Positions 6,267 to 13,139 of a stretch of DNA of 42,999 bases are shown in pieces. The first letter of the stretch is position 1. Each line of letters starts with the position of its first letter. This DNA comes from a virus (taxonomy: Duplodnaviria; Heunggongvirae; Uroviricota; Caudoviricetes), in the IMG/VR virus record IMGVR_UViG_2703718845_000002, positions 1 to 42,999 of that record; one strand, given 5' to 3'. A program made the translations under genes and the position numbers. Below the pieces are notes generated by a model that did not search any database, was not told the origin of the DNA, and saw nothing but the letters and a program-made list of their open reading frames with translations.

Positions 6267-6757
6267 TAGTCAGCCCTCGGCATAACTTCGGTGATCAGGT
6301 AATCCAGCCAGTATCCGTAGCCAGGCTGGGCCTCAACAATCCAGTCGTCGTAATCTTCAGTAATGTCCTCGATACCATTGCTGATAACCGTTGCGGTCCA
6401 GGTGACAATGTTGCCGTTTTTGCTGGTCTGCACCGGCATGTCGACGAAATGCAGCGTCTGCTGCTGCACGCCCTGCGTATCACCCAGGTCGATCGGCATC
6501 TGGAACCAGTTGCGCCCGCGGTCGCAATATGTTGGCGAGCGAAGCCACGACTTAAACCGCTCGGCCTGGGCAAGCGTGAATATCCACTGCAGCGTCCATG
6601 TCGCTTTAAGGTCCGTAGTGATCGGCGTGATTATCAATGGACCGACTGCCGTCTGCGTCGTCTGCCAGGCTGTATCCTGCGTCATGTTCTGATCGGCACG
6701 CTGGGGCAGTGGCAGGAACGGAGGGTATTGAACTGTTGCCACGTTTCCTCCGGGCAT
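6266..6757 (-). CDS. Minor tail protein
   Basis: 163 aa, ATG at 6757; position between tape measure and distal tail genes; a hairpin plus U-run lies immediately upstream, leaving no room for a normal SD. Confidence 0.55.
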   Translation of the reverse strand: MPGGNVATVQYPPFLPLPQRADQNMTQDTAWQTTQTAVGPLIITPITTDLKATWTLQWIFTLAQAERFKSWLRSPTYCDRGRNWFQMPIDLGDTQGVQQQTLHFVDMPVQTSKNGNIVTWTATVISNGIEDITEDYDDWIVEAQPGYGYWLDYLITEVMPRAD

Positions 6758-6778
6758 AAAAAATGCCGCGGCTGCGGC
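6758..6778 (-). terminator. Intrinsic terminator-like hairpin (minus strand)
   Basis: Minus-strand RNA GCCGC-AGCC-GCGGC followed by A + U6, ending at the ATG of the minor tail gene. Confidence 0.5.
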
Positions 6779-6855
6779 ACTGATCTTTTATCAGGATGTT
6801 ACTAAATGTGTCTCGCTGATACTGTGTATTTTTCACACACAGCAAGAGAGGTCAT

Positions 6856-7119
6856 ATGTCTTACATTCACAGCAGAGAACATGCTGATCATGGCGATGTC
6901 ATCAGCATTCATTGCTCTCATCAAATTAACGTACTGGTTCTGGATGATACCAATTACTCTAAGTATCGTTCGGGGCGGCAATGCACATATTACGGAGGGT
7001 TTTACACTAGATTTCCCGCTAATATAGCTGTTCCTCACTCTGGCTACTGGAATGTCGTGCTGGCCCTTCCTCCCGGCCATCGAGCTAATATCCAGTACTC
7101 AATCAATATCATCCGGTAA
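6856..7119 (+). CDS. Hypothetical protein (AT-rich moron cassette, plus strand)
   Basis: ATG at 6856 preceded by AGAGAGG SD 4 nt upstream; 87 aa; AT-rich; opposite orientation to all flanking tail genes; 3' end overlaps the convergent ORF 7099..7278 by 21 nt. Confidence 0.35.
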   Translation: MSYIHSREHADHGDVISIHCSHQINVLVLDDTNYSKYRSGRQCTYYGGFYTRFPANIAVPHSGYWNVVLALPPGHRANIQYSINIIR

Positions 7120-7278
7120 ATTTAGCTGACCTTTTGCCTGAAATAGGGATTCTTCAAGGGCGGCAATGATCTTCTGCTGTGTGCCGTCCCTTAAATAACC
7201 TACCGACGCCATCCCCTCCTGTTTATCGCTGTCGCGGTACCAGATAACCTCGCCATTAACTTCGATTGCTACTTTCAT
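7099..7278 (-). CDS. Hypothetical small protein (moron cassette)
   Basis: Track ORF 7099..7287 begins with GTG; in-frame ATG at 7278 has a GGGTGA SD and sits just after the terminator U-run; 59 aa (MKVAIEVNGEVIWYRDSDKQ...). Confidence 0.4.
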   Translation of the reverse strand: MKVAIEVNGEVIWYRDSDKQEGMASVGYLRDGTQQKIIAALEESLFQAKGQLNLPDDID

Positions 7279-7292
7279 TATGTTCACCCATT

Positions 7293-7313
7293 AAAAAACC
7301 CGCCGGAGCGGGC
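7293..7313 (-). terminator. Rho-independent terminator downstream of tape measure gene
   Basis: Minus-strand RNA GCCCGC-UCCG-GCGGG followed by U6; near-identical copy of the hairpin at 9942..9962. Confidence 0.7.
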
Positions 7314-7318
7314 TTGGT

Positions 7319-9925
7319 TTAGTAAGTGGCTTGCGCTTTGCGGCTTAGTCCAAATGTCTGCTGCATCTGAGAGGATACCGGGCCGCCTCTTTCCATGTCG
7401 GTGATCAGCAAGTCCACAACTGCACTACCGTCCTGCATGTAGCCGTTGGCACTCTGTAAGGTGGCACCGGTAGACTGGTTGATGACGTTCACCTGCACGC
7501 TAATCCCTCCTCCTGACTGCATATCCTTATTGCTGATGACCTTCCCGTTATCGCCGGGGATCATGTACTGCTTGCCGGTGCTGGCCTGGTAAATCTCTGG
7601 CTTACCTTTCTCGCCTACCTGATACAGGCCGCCGGCTGATACCGGACCGCCGTTGTAGCGTGCGCCGGCAAGCGCAAGCCCGTTAGCCAGTCCCACCGTC
7701 GAACTGATACCAGCTGCAGCCGGGCCAGCGTTAGCACCGAACGAGGCGAGCGATGCCATAGCGGCCGCCGGAGCCCAGGCTGAAGCGGTAGTTGCCGCCA
7801 GTCCGACTGATGTCGCCACCGATGCGGCACCGAGCGTCTGACCGAGAATGTAGTTTTTCAGCGCTTCGACGCCAACCTGGACAATGCTGTTGATCACGCT
7901 GTTCAGGATGGTGTTGCCGAGCGACCGCATTGCCTCCTGCGCTGACATTGTGCCGGTTAGCAGACCGGTGATCGCATTGGAGGCATTCCCGCTAAACGCA
8001 TCCACCGCACTCGTCAGCATGTTATAGCCGAGGCTCTGCTGGCTGAGGATTTCCCATTGAGCTGCGATCCGCTGCTGCTCATATTGCCGGTCAGCGGCAT
8101 TTTTCAGCGCCAAGGCATTCTCATGAGCGAGAACCCCTTGCTGCTCAAACTGCTGAATCAGCGCCAGCTCCTGCGCGTGCTGGTTAGCCAGTTGCTGCAC
8201 CGGGTCAACTTCGCCAAGTGCCTGCTGGGTTGGGTTAACCACCTGCTGCGCGCGTATTTTGGCAAGGTTGGCCTGATGCTGCTGCTCCATCTGCTCAGTG
8301 GCTGCGTTGTATTCCTGCAGATCTATCTTCCCGGCGTTCAGCGCCGCTTTCAGGTTCTGCATGGATTCAGCGTAGGATTTATTCTCAGCCTGTTCCGGAA
8401 TGGCATTAAGCGCCTCTGTTACCCCCTTCGCCGCTGCGGCTGCATCCCATGCGGCTGCTGCGTATTTGCCTGCTTCCTGGATTTGAGCCTGAGTAGCTGA
8501 TTTACCAAGAGACTGCTGCGCACGCAATATCGCCTGCTCACGGCTCAATTCCTGAGTTGAGTCCGCTGCAAGCTCAGACTGCTGGCGAAGGTTTTCGAGT
8601 TTTTGGGCAATAGAATCTGCGGTAGACGCCGACTGTTTCCCGGCTTTGTCGCTTTCCTTCCTCGCCTCCGTAACCCGATAGGTTTCTGCATATTCGTCCT
8701 GCAGCGCTTTTATTCGCTTAGGATCGGTCACCCCAGCATCAGCTGCATCATATTGGGCCTGAAGCCTGGCTCGCGCCTCGCCTTCAAGTTTGGCCAATGC
8801 AAGCCGGCGCTCAGAGTTTTGAACCAGCTTCTTGGTTGCGGCGTCATCGCCTTTGGTCGGAGGCGCTTTAAACTGGTTGCTTCCGGCGTCCTTCTGAGCC
8901 TTTGCTCGAATGTGGGCTATTTCCCCCTCGATCTGCTTCAGCTGCACTGCTGCCTGCGCCCTTCTGGCCTGAAAAACTGAGTCAGTTTCATACCATCTCT
9001 GGCCGTCTTTCAGCTCATTGTTCAGATCCTGCTGGAGCTTGATCAGCTTCGGCATTCTTGAAGAATCGCCGACATTGTTGTTGTAGTAATTGAGGTTATC
9101 CGCGACACTCTGCATCAATCCTGCAAGGGTCGTAGTCAGGCCTATTGCCTGGTTCAGGTCGTTAATGGCATTTTTGAAGGCCACATCGAGGCTGTTCTTG
9201 GCTCGATCAATGCTGACCGGCATTTTATCGAACTCTTCATTGACCGACTGCGACTGACGTTGAATGGCGTTCAGGGCATCCTGAGCCGTCAGTTTTCCTT
9301 CCAGCATTCTCTTGCGAAGATCGCCGATTGATATCCCCAACCCCGCTGCAATCTGGCGCGCAAGTTCAGGCATCTGCTCAAGAATAGAGTTGAACTCTTC
9401 AGCACGGACGATACCGCCAGAAATAGACTGGCCGAACTGCCGCAATGCGTTTGCCATTTCCTCAGTAGAGGACCCACCGATCGTGCCAATTTTTTGCAGT
9501 GTCGATGTCAACCCGAGAATTTGCGAGTTAGTGGCGCCAGTTTCCTTTAACGCTGTCGTTAGTGATTCCCATAACCTCTCAGTTTCTGACAGGCTATTAC
9601 CTGTTTGAGCCGCGATTGCAGACAGTGAGGCAAGTGTTTCTTTGGCCACGTCAATGCTGGGGCTTAGTCTGGCTATCCTCGCCTGGAGCGTAACCATCTC
9701 GTCGCCGATGGCGATAAGCTTCTTCGCTGCATCAATGGTGAAAGCAGCTGCAATGGCAACGCCAACTTTATTTAAAGCACCTTCAAACCGCCCGGCAGAT
9801 CGTGACGATTGCTCAAACTTGGCGTCCATTTGGTCAAGACGCTTATTAACCTGCTGCTGCGCTTGGATCAGGCCGGATACGTTAGCCTCAATGTCATAAT
9901 AAATTTCACCTGCTTTTTCTGCCAT
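7319..9925 (-). CDS. Tail tape measure protein
   Basis: 868 aa, long alpha-helical, A/Q/E-rich protein with Gly-rich C-terminus, between tail chaperone region and minor tail genes; ATG at 9925 with GGAG SD. Confidence 0.9.
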   Translation of the reverse strand: MAEKAGEIYYDIEANVSGLIQAQQQVNKRLDQMDAKFEQSSRSAGRFEGALNKVGVAIAAAFTIDAAKKLIAIGDEMVTLQARIARLSPSIDVAKETLASLSAIAAQTGNSLSETERLWESLTTALKETGATNSQILGLTSTLQKIGTIGGSSTEEMANALRQFGQSISGGIVRAEEFNSILEQMPELARQIAAGLGISIGDLRKRMLEGKLTAQDALNAIQRQSQSVNEEFDKMPVSIDRAKNSLDVAFKNAINDLNQAIGLTTTLAGLMQSVADNLNYYNNNVGDSSRMPKLIKLQQDLNNELKDGQRWYETDSVFQARRAQAAVQLKQIEGEIAHIRAKAQKDAGSNQFKAPPTKGDDAATKKLVQNSERRLALAKLEGEARARLQAQYDAADAGVTDPKRIKALQDEYAETYRVTEARKESDKAGKQSASTADSIAQKLENLRQQSELAADSTQELSREQAILRAQQSLGKSATQAQIQEAGKYAAAAWDAAAAAKGVTEALNAIPEQAENKSYAESMQNLKAALNAGKIDLQEYNAATEQMEQQHQANLAKIRAQQVVNPTQQALGEVDPVQQLANQHAQELALIQQFEQQGVLAHENALALKNAADRQYEQQRIAAQWEILSQQSLGYNMLTSAVDAFSGNASNAITGLLTGTMSAQEAMRSLGNTILNSVINSIVQVGVEALKNYILGQTLGAASVATSVGLAATTASAWAPAAAMASLASFGANAGPAAAGISSTVGLANGLALAGARYNGGPVSAGGLYQVGEKGKPEIYQASTGKQYMIPGDNGKVISNKDMQSGGGISVQVNVINQSTGATLQSANGYMQDGSAVVDLLITDMERGGPVSSQMQQTFGLSRKAQATY

Positions 9926-9941
9926 CGCATACTCCGGGCAT

Positions 9942-9962
9942 AAAAAAACCCGCCGGAGCGGG
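9942..9962 (-). terminator. Rho-independent terminator between moron gene and tape measure gene
   Basis: Same CCCGCCGGAGCGGG hairpin plus U7 on minus strand as at 7293..7313. Confidence 0.7.
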
Positions 9963-9967
9963 TTTGG

Positions 9968-10297
9968 TTATTTACAGGCCCGTTGGCCTATATAATACGC
10001 AATTGAATTATCAACTATTGGTGACATGCCTTCGTCAGGCTTGGATGCTTTCATCTGTTCCAGCGTATCACCATCACCAAGATACTTAACTGTCCACGAT
10101 GTGCAGTCATACAGGCGCTGTGAGTAAGATGTCCCTGACGGCCCCTCTCTCATGGTCGTGATGGTCGCCATGGAGCCATTTAAGCTTTTATCTATGATGG
10201 TGTATTTGGCTTTCGAATCGGTCGGGATGGAAATTGTAGTGGCTGAGGCAGCGCCAAAAGAAACCGTTAACATTAACACTAAAGCTAATTTTTTCAT
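9968..10297 (-). CDS. Secreted small protein with signal peptide (moron)
   Basis: 109 aa; N-terminal MKKLALVLMLTVSFGAASA looks like a Sec signal peptide with AxA cleavage site; two Cys; AT-rich codon usage unlike flanking tail genes. Confidence 0.6.
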   Translation of the reverse strand: MKKLALVLMLTVSFGAASATTISIPTDSKAKYTIIDKSLNGSMATITTMREGPSGTSYSQRLYDCTSWTVKYLGDGDTLEQMKASKPDEGMSPIVDNSIAYYIGQRACK

Positions 10298-10301
10298 GTA
10301 A

Positions 10302-10829
10302 TTACCCTATTTTAAAACCCATAAACTTACTTCCTGTCAGTTGGGATAGTTCAATTTCCCCGCCTCCCCAACCTTCCTCATGCATCTTTCGGTTCAATTG
10401 TTCTTCACGCTTAATATTCTTACACTTTCGAAGCAAGACGCCGAGTTGATAGTAACCATGGTGACTAGGCCGGTAAAAGGTTTTAGGGTATGGATAATCG
10501 CCTACCACTTGCTCATATTCATAAATTTGATAAAGCGCCTTGGCTATCAACGCATCCATGGCAATATCAGAAATGCAAATCATGTATTCACAAGCGCTAA
10601 TTGCAATAGACAAATGTTTCTGATCTGCGCGCAGTCGGTAGTGCTTTTTTACAGCCTCAGATAGTTGAAAATGAAGATCTACCACTTCTAAAAAGTTCTT
10701 TTTTAGCACCCACGACCTGAACCATTCGACTTTATCTCGAGAGAATCCATCAAGGCTCATATCCCTATCCCCACTGGTTAGTTTTGAACAGATTAGCAGG
10801 GATAGGAGAGAACGACAAAAGTGCTCCAT
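10302..10829 (-). CDS. Hypothetical cytoplasmic protein (moron); alternative start at 10760
   Basis: 175 aa ORF, AT-rich; ATG at 10829 has weak SD, in-frame ATG at 10760 has GGGGA/AGGGA SD; stop 4 nt before the downstream secreted-protein gene. Confidence 0.5.
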   Translation of the reverse strand: MEHFCRSLLSLLICSKLTSGDRDMSLDGFSRDKVEWFRSWVLKKNFLEVVDLHFQLSEAVKKHYRLRADQKHLSIAISACEYMICISDIAMDALIAKALYQIYEYEQVVGDYPYPKTFYRPSHHGYYQLGVLLRKCKNIKREEQLNRKMHEEGWGGGEIELSQLTGSKFMGFKIG

Positions 10830-10845
10830 CTTGGCTTAAAAAGCA

Positions 10846-11376
10846 CTAAGCAATGCCGGGCAAGTACAGCTGAACTTCATCGGCAGCACGATCACGCGCG
10901 GCATGGAGTAATCGCTTACGTCCGCCGACTCCCCATTTTGCCATCTGGCTAGCACACTGGCTAATCGCTTTGGTTTCAGTGTTGATGATATGGTCGATTT
11001 TGTTCAGCCTGGCCATGGCGCCGATCCCCAAACGGACAACGGTTCGAAATACCTCATACACTTCAATTTCGAACTCCGGCTTAATCCAGGCAGCGTAGCG
11101 AATAGCAAGTAGTTCGACGCCCCACGCGCCGGATTCAGAGCCGCCTTTTATCACCTTAAGCGGTTGATTTTGTTCCGAAGCACTTTTTAGTGCTTTGGAT
11201 TGAAGCGCCTTAATGAAGCGTTTTATTTGGGCGCTTCTGAGAAATACGCTTGGGCGCTGGGACTCTGTAGCCTCCCCATTTGCCACGGCTGCTGCATGGA
11301 GGTCATTAAGGCTATAGCGCCCCTCATCGTCGACACGAACGGAGACGCCGTTCACTGATACAGTTGGATATTTCAT
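10846..11376 (-). CDS. KilA-N domain protein
   Basis: N-terminal region (VSVNGVSVRVDDEGRYSLNDLHAAAV...RPSVFLRS) matches the KilA-N DNA-binding domain pattern; unusual location inside the tail module. Confidence 0.6.
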   Translation of the reverse strand: MKYPTVSVNGVSVRVDDEGRYSLNDLHAAAVANGEATESQRPSVFLRSAQIKRFIKALQSKALKSASEQNQPLKVIKGGSESGAWGVELLAIRYAAWIKPEFEIEVYEVFRTVVRLGIGAMARLNKIDHIINTETKAISQCASQMAKWGVGGRKRLLHAARDRAADEVQLYLPGIA

Positions 11377-11547
11377 ATCGGTTTACCTTTGAGTGATGAA
11401 CCTTGTCGCACAGGAAACCGGCCCACAGAAGGGCACCGACAGCCAGCCGGCATCCTCAAGGGTCATCCTGAAAGGTTCTGTGTTAAATGCGCGTGCGAGG
11501 CGCGTCAGAAGTGAGTCGGCGTTAGCCGTTCACGAACAAACGGATAT

Positions 11548-11571
11548 AAAAAAGCCCCGCGAATGCGAGGC
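11548..11571 (-). terminator. Rho-independent terminator (minus strand)
   Basis: Minus-strand RNA GCCUCGC-AUUC-GCGGGGC (G.U wobble) followed by U6; same stem sequence as the terminator at 25365..25390. Confidence 0.6.
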
Positions 11572-11593
11572 TGATATTCGGTTAGTGCTGTGG

Positions 11594-12307
11594 TTATTTC
11601 TTCGTGCGGCTTGTCATGGATCGCTCCTGCTCCATCATCGCCTGCCAGCGGCGATCATCTTCGTCCATGACCGTGTCGTACTCTTCGCGCGTGAAGCCGT
11701 TCTGATTGGGGTATTTGGCGTTAATCATCATGGCGAACTCTGTCATCGTGAGGTTCTCAGCCTCTTCCCGGCTTATGCCGAAATGGTTACGGGCCGCCAT
11801 GATGTAGTCGGCTGCGCGGAATTCTGCGGTTGTCTCATTCGTTTCGTAACGCTGCAGCTTGCGCACCTTCGCTTTGCCGATGATGCCGTGCATCATCAGG
11901 TTTTGCGCGACGATGACCATACTTTCCGGCGGCATGCTGCCCGGGCGCCATACAAAGCCACGCTTACGTGATTTCCCCGGCTTCATCCAACCAACCAGAT
12001 CGCCGATATCATCGTCACAACATGCTGTCAGTACCGTATGCGCGGCCATGATCGCTTTGCGTGACAGGAGCCCGCTTTGCATAAACCGCATGACGCAATC
12101 AGGAAGGTGGCTGTACTCATCGCGGATATAGGCCTCGGCTGCGCGCTGCGCGAATGGCGTAGCCTCGTCATTGCACAGGTCATAGAATGCCTGAACAATC
12201 TCCTCGGGCTCACCGATTCGCGCCATGTTGCGAAACGACGGCCGGAAAAAGAGTTCCCGGTCACCGGTACCGATAACGCATTCGCCTAATTCTTTAATCG
12301 GGGTCAT
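11594..12307 (-). CDS. Putative tail assembly chaperone (positional call)
   Basis: 237 aa ORF between major tail protein and tape measure, where G/GT-type chaperones are encoded; no diagnostic motif recognised, no frameshift partner identified. Confidence 0.45.
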   Translation of the reverse strand: MTPIKELGECVIGTGDRELFFRPSFRNMARIGEPEEIVQAFYDLCNDEATPFAQRAAEAYIRDEYSHLPDCVMRFMQSGLLSRKAIMAAHTVLTACCDDDIGDLVGWMKPGKSRKRGFVWRPGSMPPESMVIVAQNLMMHGIIGKAKVRKLQRYETNETTAEFRAADYIMAARNHFGISREEAENLTMTEFAMMINAKYPNQNGFTREEYDTVMDEDDRRWQAMMEQERSMTSRTKK

Positions 12308-12374: not shown

Positions 12375-13139
12375 TTAACTGATAGTGACCGCGCAGGATG
12401 CAGAAGTGATCGTGAATGGTGTCGCGGAAGAATCGGTAACTTCACAGGTATAGGCCCCGGCATCACCGGAAACAGCGCTGGCCTTGTTGAAGGTCGCCGT
12501 TGTTTGCCCGCTTACAACCGTGCCGTCTTTCTTCCAGACGTAGGTATAAGGCGAAGTGCCACCCTCAACCACTACCGACATATTCAGAGCCGCCCCTGCC
12601 GCCACGCTCTTGGTCGTCGGCAGGTTGGTGGTAAACGCCAGCGCCGGTGGAGCGACCTCAAATACTACGGTGTCTGCATCAGCAACTTTCCACTCACCAG
12701 AGAAGGTGGAAATATCCGTGGTGCCAAAATCACCAGACCAGGAGGTGGTGTTAAAGTAGCCCATGATATAAGTGCCAGCGTCTTCACCAGTGAAGTCGAA
12801 GCGGACCCAGACAGTCGGCTGACGGCCGGCCTGCACTTCATCGAAAATATATTTCGAGATGGCAATAGCTCCGACTTCCGTCGTCTTGTCTTTCTTGCGG
12901 AACTCACCTTCTCCGGAGATGGTGAAGTCCATGTTGTTGACCAGGTTCTCAACCAGCCCCTTCGTATCGTCAGCCTCAGAGGTGACGGTATTCATGGAGT
13001 AGTCAAAGCCCTTGGTGGTCATGGCGCCGAGTCGCTTCCATTCGGAAAGCGCAGGAACCGTATCAGCACAGCCAAAAGCCATGCGGAGCACGGCCACCTT
13101 ACCAATCAGCTTGCCGGTGTCATTAGCGCAGCCTTGCAT
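12375..13139 (-). CDS. Major tail (tube) protein with C-terminal Ig-like domain
   Basis: 254 aa; C-terminal 80 aa (SVVVEGGTSPYTYVWKKDGTVVSGQTTATF...AYTCEVTD) resembles an Ig-like fold as on lambda V; ATG at 13139. Confidence 0.8.
   Translation of the reverse strand: MQGCANDTGKLIGKVAVLRMAFGCADTVPALSEWKRLGAMTTKGFDYSMNTVTSEADDTKGLVENLVNNMDFTISGEGEFRKKDKTTEVGAIAISKYIFDEVQAGRQPTVWVRFDFTGEDAGTYIMGYFNTTSWSGDFGTTDISTFSGEWKVADADTVVFEVAPPALAFTTNLPTTKSVAAGAALNMSVVVEGGTSPYTYVWKKDGTVVSGQTTATFNKASAVSGDAGAYTCEVTDSSATPFTITSASCAVTIS

Follow-up and report, generated by a model that had tools for sequence, protein, structure and literature searches.

Why does a lambda-like prophage carry three extra genes just ahead of its tape measure gene, and what might they do for the phage or its host? 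The question arises from a 42,999-nucleotide (nt) stretch of DNA (positions 1 to 42,999 of IMG/VR virus record IMGVR_UViG_2703718845_000002, class Caudoviricetes), which we call the window and which supplies all coordinates unless another locus is named. Its minus strand is a lambda-like late operon in which the major tail protein gene is followed by the gene for a DUF6246 protein, three open reading frames (ORFs) and a TMP_3-type tape measure gene. The element is best explained as a Klebsiella-type lambda-like siphovirus prophage, and the region as its slot for cargo genes, or morons. We put the probability at roughly 70–80% that this slot holds two independent modules: a gene for a KilA-N domain protein behind a structured RNA leader, and a two-gene unit, B–C, behind a different, promoter-bearing leader.

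This reading is carried by comparison with related loci. The sample comprised 80 IMG/VR loci encoding a DUF6246 protein at least 88% identical, together with GenBank phages and genome loci, and the slot was defined as the stretch from the DUF6246 gene to the next large (tape measure) ORF. Both borders were identified in 77 loci, namely the window, two from Pantoea coffeiphila and 74 relatives with a DUF6246 protein more than 88% identical, and the ORFs of the slot were clustered after leader-derived extensions had been trimmed. Every one of the 77 slots is filled, with 0.96–4.4 kb of sequence encoding 79 protein clusters in many shuffled combinations. Of these slots, 34 have the KilA-N type of the window, 17 have C and 14 have a member of the B family, the last count taking in a short 113-amino-acid form at about 35% identity, with close relatives of B in a few slots only. 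The exact gene arrangement of the window recurs only in loci L029 and L093, each time with one extra gene, and Pantoea ananatis has the same arrangement minus the KilA-N gene. At its end, the slot mostly has small signal-peptide or lipoprotein genes that belong to no Pfam family.

Variable extra genes between conserved neighbours are one mark of a moron. Two others are a downstream terminator, here a hairpin and a run of seven T (9965–9946), and an upstream promoter, which at the level of sequence we recognize as TTGTCG-17-TGcTAATCT. A first-pass annotation of the same DNA had called the genes accessory cargo rather than tail-assembly machinery in a possibly variable site, a view that would have suffered had they been universal here with a tail-assembly role; the frequencies of the three families and the shuffled contents of the slot bear it out. 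Its picture of a single three-gene insertion does not hold, as the KilA-N gene forms a module of its own behind another type of leader. The features are as follows.

12375–13139, minus strand: major tail protein gene, which heads the late-operon gene order.
11594–12307, minus strand: DUF6246 gene, the left flank, in the tail assembly chaperone position, which G/GT occupies in lambda (PF19759, E = 3.9e-83; phrog_791).
11553–11572, minus strand: intrinsic terminator after the DUF6246 gene, the upstream boundary of the slot (8-bp stem with 6 GC pairs, 4-nt loop, T-run).
11374–11505, minus strand: structured RNA leader of the KilA-N gene, from its fold and covariation.
10846–11376, minus strand: KilA-N gene, 176 amino acids (PF04383, E = 4.9e-16; phrog_129).
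10761–10818, minus strand: predicted moron promoter-leader, from sequence comparison: −35 element TTGTCG (10818–10813), 17-nt spacer, extended −10 element TGcTAATCT (10798–10790) and Shine–Dalgarno sequence GGGGATAGGGAT (10772–10761).
10302–10760, minus strand: gene B, 152 amino acids from a start shared with its homologues, predicted cytoplasmic, all-helical and TPR-like (the longest ORF, to 10829, has 175 amino acids).
9968–10297, minus strand: gene C, 109 amino acids, predicted to be exported by a Sec-type signal peptide; mature part a β-sheet with two helices and Cys65–Cys108, from an AlphaFold 2 model and homologues.
9946–9965, minus strand: intrinsic terminator closing the B–C operon (8-bp stem and T7 run).
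7319–9925, minus strand: tape measure protein gene, the right flank (PF20155, TMP_3, E = 1.5e-51; phrog_1107 and phrog_1538).

Much of this layout had been described before: three same-strand genes (ORFs 10846–11376, 10302–10829 and 9968–10297) between the DUF6246 and tape measure genes, bracketed by intrinsic terminators that we place, within 1–4 nt of the earlier positions, at 11572–11553 and 9965–9946. The first of these terminators lies 22 nt past the DUF6246 stop codon and is kept in related loci; the second lies 20 nt upstream of the tape measure start codon. B and C, separated by 4 nt (10298–10301), are indeed AT-rich (GC content 0.410 and 0.445, compared with 0.524 for the window) and deviate in base composition from the flanking tape measure (0.546) and DUF6246 (0.556) genes, whereas the KilA-N gene (0.518) does not. 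All three are real genes under purifying selection, with pN, the non-synonymous divergence, far below pS, its synonymous counterpart, in every homologue comparison, and with a ratio of the corresponding substitution rates (dN/dS) of 0.04–0.29 where synonymous sites are unsaturated (0.04–0.07 for the KilA-N gene).

In 25 of the 77 slots, a hairpin of the type AAACCCGC...GCGGGTTTT ends no more than 70 nt before the tape measure gene begins. It is enriched 3.4-fold in slots, but this frequency near the tape measure gene, and its position before a promoter-leader in 9 of 70 cases, argue weakly at best for a shared terminator as the universal right-hand border of cassettes. Weak Rfam matches to the trp leader, rsmX and isrK at 9940–10022 fall on the terminator far under their gathering scores and were rejected.

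The B–C module opens with a motif that ends in GGGGATAGGGAT-ATG directly before the true start of B. All 81 copies of this motif in the related loci are on the gene strand and downstream of the DUF6246 gene, 70 of them in delimited slots and 11 in loci in which the tape measure gene was not located; the rest of the sequence, about 1.8 Mb with the two strands added together, has none. Scanning IMG/VR for exact matches added more than 120 copies, mostly adjoining homologues of DUF6246, tape measure or major tail genes at identities down to 28%. These copies precede dozens of unrelated, mostly exported proteins. In all, loci L001–L216 have more than 200 instances, and the cassette is restricted to this slot in the tail operons of a wide range of enterobacterial siphovirus prophages. 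We aligned 54 non-redundant leaders on the best TAnnnT, a procedure that fixes T1 and A2 at 54/54 by construction. Also conserved are the T, T and C of the −35 element, the 17-nt spacing, the TG of the extended −10 element (42 and 47 of 54), A5 (41 of 54) and T6, yielding the consensus TTGnCn-17-TGnTAnGAT at 23–25 nt upstream of the Shine–Dalgarno sequence; the remaining leader positions vary. Because the positions contacted by σ70 are conserved while the rest varies, we read the leader as a putative portable σ70 extended −10 promoter joined to a strong ribosome-binding site. A C homologue has the cassette in Pectobacterium and a related leader in a P2/Mu-like Salmonella prophage, which suggests that the cassette moves with its gene. 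The tag TGnTAnGAT...GGGGATAGGGAT-ATG can be used to locate such cargo genes.

One subgroup of loci, L105 and L130 among them, has its cargo on the upstream side of the DUF6246-like gene, not downstream of it. The possibility that the leaders hide the Shine–Dalgarno sequence specifically in read-through transcripts, and expose it in the transcript from the module's promoter, was rejected as a general design, because over 55 non-redundant leaders read-through RNA showed no more occlusion than controls with shuffled upstream sequence (0.285 compared with 0.289, p = 0.54). The window itself does fold in this way: in its leader of B, the probability that the Shine–Dalgarno sequence is unpaired is 0.15 in read-through and 0.46 in the module's own transcript.

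All B homologues begin at the methionine encoded at 10760, and the 23 codons upstream (...SLLICSKLTSGDRD) are a translated non-coding leader whose sequence, in other phages, also precedes genes unrelated to B. B therefore truly starts at 10760 and its product has 152 residues; the 175 amino acids reported earlier are those of the longest ORF (10302–10829). Like C, B has no Pfam or NCBIfam match, and it has neither a hydrophobic segment nor a signal peptide, in keeping with the earlier description of a cytoplasmic protein without a recognizable domain. We predict a cytoplasmic, all-helical TPR-like protein. A profile search of 1.84 billion representatives found 57 relatives, several of which have the domain at the C terminus of proteins of 200–290 amino acids. 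H30 and Y41 are invariant in the family, and F31, R44, C57, P98, H100, G130 and W131 are nearly so. B and C belong to phrog_22434 and phrog_13843, both of unassigned function; the former takes in 37 of the 38 B-family members scanned, none of them named.

One relative, gp51 of Erwinia phage vB_EhrS_49 (L096, 3725–4327), is a 200-amino-acid protein with a C-terminal B-like domain, encoded directly 3′ of a CI-like repressor gene. This rexAB-type position, the classic one for genes that lysogens express, hints that the B family is expressed in lysogens. Two matches to the defence models of PADLOC were rejected: PDC-M13B matches B (E = 0.005) and no other family member, and PDC-M72A matches the ankyrin part of one distant relative, outside its B-like domain.

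The product of C was described from the outset as a 109-residue protein with a Sec signal peptide, and its N terminus agrees, with MKK as the n-region, then a hydrophobic core of 13 residues and an ASA|TT site. The AlphaFold 2 model, with a predicted local distance difference test score of 89 and low confidence at residues 1–19, has a five-stranded antiparallel sheet and two helices after a signal peptide of 19 residues; C65 and C108 are invariant in the family. C is thus predicted to be a Sec-exported, disulfide-bonded periplasmic protein with a fold like those of Protein E and PseM. Its family comprises at least 551 clusters in Gammaproteobacteria, all annotated as hypothetical, and BFVD includes phage proteins of weak similarity to C, among them one with the annotation Protein E-like. 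Profile searches of Pfam and the PDB found no sequence-level homology to Protein E or PseM/TdeM. A match of the C profile to a flagellin IN-motif protein (PDB 6xi1) was a sum of short matches, no single stretch of which passes, and was ignored.

C also occurs outside the slot, between ddrB and the portal gene of phage D6 and at the end of a myovirus-type (P2/Mu-like) prophage of Salmonella. The Salmonella enterica homologue (L219–L221, 4001–4333) is 61% identical and widespread (220 index blocks); it stands at the prophage end after the tail-fibre genes and adjoins a gene for an AAA_15/AAA_21 ATPase. Such ATPase genes are common in defence islands.

Upstream of B–C, the KilA-N gene has an arrangement of its own. 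About 130 nt before its start codon are conserved ahead of different genes of the Bro network of phage regulators, and this leader folds into a short GCGC hairpin and a long irregular hairpin of about 95 nt, the basal helix of which pairs the Shine–Dalgarno region (minimum free energy z-score, −2.6). At least three sequence-divergent versions fold independently into the same shape, and a covariance model built from type-1 leaders only recovers the divergent types at full length (E = 1e-5 to 1e-11). In the alignment to this model, pairing holds in 96.7% of cells, and compensatory changes affect 23 of 35 pairs, a result matched by none of 500 shuffles; slid controls gave at most nine such pairs. 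Rfam 15 has no match at 11374–11505, or in the leader of B at 10761–10830, the only hits being sub-threshold ones at the terminators. Instances are found in the window (11374–11505), in L003 (6569–6707), L006 (4525–4645), L012 (7754–7887), L073 (7750–7890) and L222 (2949–3082), and, among P22-like and other phages, in ST104 (L217, 3517–3655) and ST64B (L218, 1459–1596). The genes behind it encode KilA-N, Rha or KilA-N+P63C proteins, and the leader may be an undescribed phage cis-regulatory RNA.

The KilA-N protein matches PF04383 over residues 9–113 with 58.9 bits (gathering cutoff, 23.8). The same gene, at 76–79% nucleotide identity, lies between Rz and terminase in the P22-like ST104 and in ST64B, which is another late-operon accessory site. 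In the slot, the first position is taken by the KilA-N gene of the window or by genes for a 251-amino-acid KilA-N+P63C protein, a 185-amino-acid Rha+ORF11CD3 protein, a Bro-N+P22_AR_C protein with a divergent Arc-like gene, or an HNH/AP2 protein; the first four of these five types alternate behind the same leader. Upstream of this leader, as far as the terminator of the DUF6246 gene, neither inspection by eye nor a scan found a LexA box or a clear promoter. KilA-N, Bro-N, Rha, ANT, P22_AR and ORF11CD3 are the domains of the Bro network (Iyer et al. 2002, as in PMC10111431), and by its PF04383 match and its alternation with other members the window protein appears to be a DNA-binding regulator or antirepressor-like protein of this network, interchangeable with Rha and Bro-N.

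Some relatives have an immI-like unit in the slot (L008, 2839–5899; also L046, L048, L051, L059, L068 and L069), in which a divergent Arc-like repressor gene accompanies an antirepressor of the Bro-N/P22_AR type; such units suggest that antirepressor genes are the general occupants of the first slot position. The likeness to immI of phage P22 lies in the pairing of an Arc-like repressor with a P22_AR_N antirepressor at a site within the late region. The window, by contrast, has no Arc/Mnt-type repressor and no known antisense RNA; it has the leader that would occlude the Shine–Dalgarno sequence instead, and the antirepressor activity of its KilA-N protein is putative.

We propose that the KilA-N regulator is probably transcribed through antiterminated late read-through and that its translation is probably gated by the structured leader, some 130 nt long, in which the ribosome-binding site is paired. 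The B–C operon, with its predicted σ70 extended −10 promoter, strong Shine–Dalgarno leader and intrinsic terminator, should be open to expression from a repressed prophage. B would serve in the cytoplasm as a small TPR-like protein-binding module, and C would pass through the Sec pathway, form its disulfide in the periplasm and act at the cell envelope. The resulting phenotype would be a lysogenic conversion of the envelope.

The nearest precedent is gene 15 of phage HK97, the first gene to be named a moron (Juhala et al. 2000; Cumby et al. 2012; reviewed in PMC3594210). Its neighbours are the tail chaperone gene on one side and the tape measure gene on the other, and its product is a superinfection exclusion protein (PMC3594210). 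Both loci occupy the same interval of a tail operon, and both have the character of an independent transcription unit in a late operon, with a promoter, small coding content, a terminator and a deviating base composition; both are patchy among relatives and have an envelope-located product, predicted as such for C. The differences are considerable. HK97 gp15 is a single YebO-like inner-membrane protein known for exclusion, whereas the window has two unrelated proteins, one cytoplasmic and TPR-like and one periplasmic with a Protein E/PseM-like fold, for which exclusion is putative. Neither is a member of the gp15/YebO family: B and C have no Pfam match, B lacks a hydrophobic segment, and the N-terminal signal peptide of C is of the cleavable kind and no membrane anchor. 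The window also has the separate KilA-N module, and its slot is a multi-cassette mosaic that reuses one promoter-leader. Two considerations, the function of the HK97 gene at this site and the prevalence of exported proteins among the cargo, lead us to a tentative best guess, with perhaps three chances in ten: superinfecting phages would be excluded at the envelope, at adsorption or DNA entry. A role in host fitness or adhesion is less likely. Superinfection exclusion and host interaction, two of the roles named in the first-pass annotation, are both plausible for these putative envelope genes.

Several observations weigh against this overall picture. A simple consensus promoter scan left the promoter of B unflagged, the −10 hexamer of the window (TAATCT) is weak, and the promoter is predicted from sequence. 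The covariation of the KilA-N leader comes from a model-fitted alignment, and an unfitted MAFFT alignment recovers the outer helices only. B and C have no functional annotation in Pfam, NCBIfam or PADLOC and no sequence-level relative with a solved structure. Nor does either have a direct link to phage exclusion, the gp15 precedent being an unrelated inner-membrane protein.

Alternatively, B and C could form an obligate two-component system, either a toxin and its immunity protein or a cytoplasmic sensor with a periplasmic exclusion effector, as the first-pass annotation had suggested in proposing a functional pair of a cytoplasmic and a secreted protein. There is some genuine linkage: the 4-nt gap and predicted co-transcription would suit such a pair, the same B–4 nt–C arrangement is kept in Pantoea ananatis at 62% (B) and 55% (C) identity, and in L083 and L194 the gene after a short variant of B is again C. 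Moreover, every delimited slot with a long B closes on a gene for a small exported protein, which is either C directly after B or an unrelated 104-amino-acid lipoprotein (directly downstream of B in L006 and L007, behind the gene for an intervening 107-amino-acid protein in L008); a functional pair and the usual contents of the slot account for this pattern equally well. Consistent co-occurrence was not found, however: 12 of the 17 slots with C have no B-family gene and 9 of the 14 with the B family have no C, and only 5 of the 77 slots have the two side by side, compared with about three expected for independent genes. A promoter-leader directly before C is found in L020, L060, L064, L089 and Pectobacterium, although in the window C lacks one and rides on that of B, and it stands alone in phage D6 and the Salmonella P2/Mu-like prophage. 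Because separate occurrence is far commoner than joint occurrence and C is present in other phage types, B and C are not obligate partners, and a toxin/immunity pair is unsupported; an immunity protein against a periplasmic toxin would also need export, and B has no signal peptide. We consider an obligate system unlikely. A somewhat smaller chance still attaches to C as a peptidoglycan-active enzyme or binder of the PseM/TdeM type, used for wall crossing, lysis or attack on competitors. Pseudomonas aeruginosa PseM/TdeM (9m3l; PMC12494544) is, like C, small and exported by means of a signal peptide, and in both a helix packs against an antiparallel sheet and a disulfide joins strand to helix, and the C gene adjoins the tape measure gene. 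Yet identity to PseM is only 6%, with no sequence-level match, and C lacks the C-terminal dimerization helices that build the PseM active site. The adhesin Protein E of Haemophilus influenzae (3zh5), also small and exported with an antiparallel sheet packed by a helix, fits equally well, although it is a lipoprotein and C is not. PseM is, furthermore, toxic in the periplasm without its immunity protein, whereas C is found alone in many prophages. Both likenesses amount to 6–10% identity without detectable sequence similarity; neither adhesin nor muramidase activity can be inferred from them.

The two remaining alternatives concern the slot as a whole and the KilA-N gene, and we give both very little credence. 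Lineage-specific genes for tail assembly or virion accessories, for example a substitute for the T part of lambda G/GT, would explain why the three genes share the strand of the tail operon immediately 5′ of the tape measure gene, why no slot among the 77 is empty and why the ORF list has no overlapping −1 frame partner of the G/GT type for the DUF6246 gene. This is the alternative we hold least probable: no cargo family is universal, the genes are flanked by terminators and a predicted promoter, the predicted exported C has homologues in non-tail contexts and in myovirus prophages, and the same KilA-N gene adjoins lysis genes in P22-like phages. KilA-N, B and C do not resemble lambda G/GT-type chaperones either, as none is conserved across the relatives and the ORF list contains no overlapping pair among them. 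That the KilA-N protein might be an abortive-infection defence protein like BstA is highly improbable as well. BstA proteins are reportedly prophage-encoded, with an N-terminal KilA-N domain (PMC8585504). The window protein, however, has no match to PADLOC defence models at E ≤ 0.1, and its 176 residues leave about 60 beyond the KilA-N domain, a short ORF11CD3-like tail where BstA has a large C-terminal domain. It also swaps with Rha and Bro-N regulators behind the same leader and occupies late-operon slots, not a place beside the repressor.

We therefore return to the moron slot with two modules, which is known in kind. Promoter-stem-loop (PeSL) elements were reportedly described by Arbiol et al. 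in 2010 as mobile regulatory cassettes of T4-type phages. Like them, the promoter-leader of B is a short conserved element ahead of many unrelated small cargo genes in a hyperplastic region, and it plausibly supplies both expression and homology for the shuffling of cassettes, recombination at the window elements being putative. It differs in phage group and in sequence, and its predicted σ70 extended −10 promoter would suit expression from a prophage, as opposed to the early promoter of T4. As far as the searched libraries show, neither the particular proteins nor the two leaders, the reused one with its promoter and the structured one, have been described. The literature searched did not report on DUF6246 function or on the Klebsiella slot, and a paper on Tai tail-assembly-interference systems (PMC11364771) showed no connection to the region. 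More speculatively, the leader may be an undescribed class of phage riboregulator, and the C family, the B family or both may be new prophage-encoded exclusion or defence proteins on a portable promoter-leader; we hold these readings to be rather unlikely.

A second small variable region seems to lie 3′ of the tape measure gene (6757–7319, minus strand). It holds a 62-amino-acid ORF (7099–7287; phrog_21096, function unassigned) and about 340 nt of lower GC content before the next tail gene. At the corresponding place, Klebsiella phage Kp4856-1 has a 182-amino-acid ORF (L003, 1064–1612).

For the window taken alone, the finding is one of ordinary phage cargo. In this lineage, the slot is a busy exchange point at which dozens of small, mostly exported proteins reuse one promoter-leader, and it offers a catalogue of candidate genes for lysogenic conversion or exclusion in prophages of Klebsiella, Enterobacter, Salmonella, Pantoea and Pectobacterium. 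As the C family is common and has no name, a single phenotype would give hundreds of genes their annotation. The leader with the conserved fold may explain the control of KilA-N and Rha proteins, which are common but poorly understood regulators of late regions; if the proposal is true, it would block the translation of KilA-N, Rha and Bro-type regulators until the helix with the Shine–Dalgarno sequence is opened by a specific signal. If the C or B families are indeed new exclusion or defence proteins, the slot itself would be an integrase-free, integron-like store of envelope-modifying genes, spread by a dedicated portable promoter-leader cassette.

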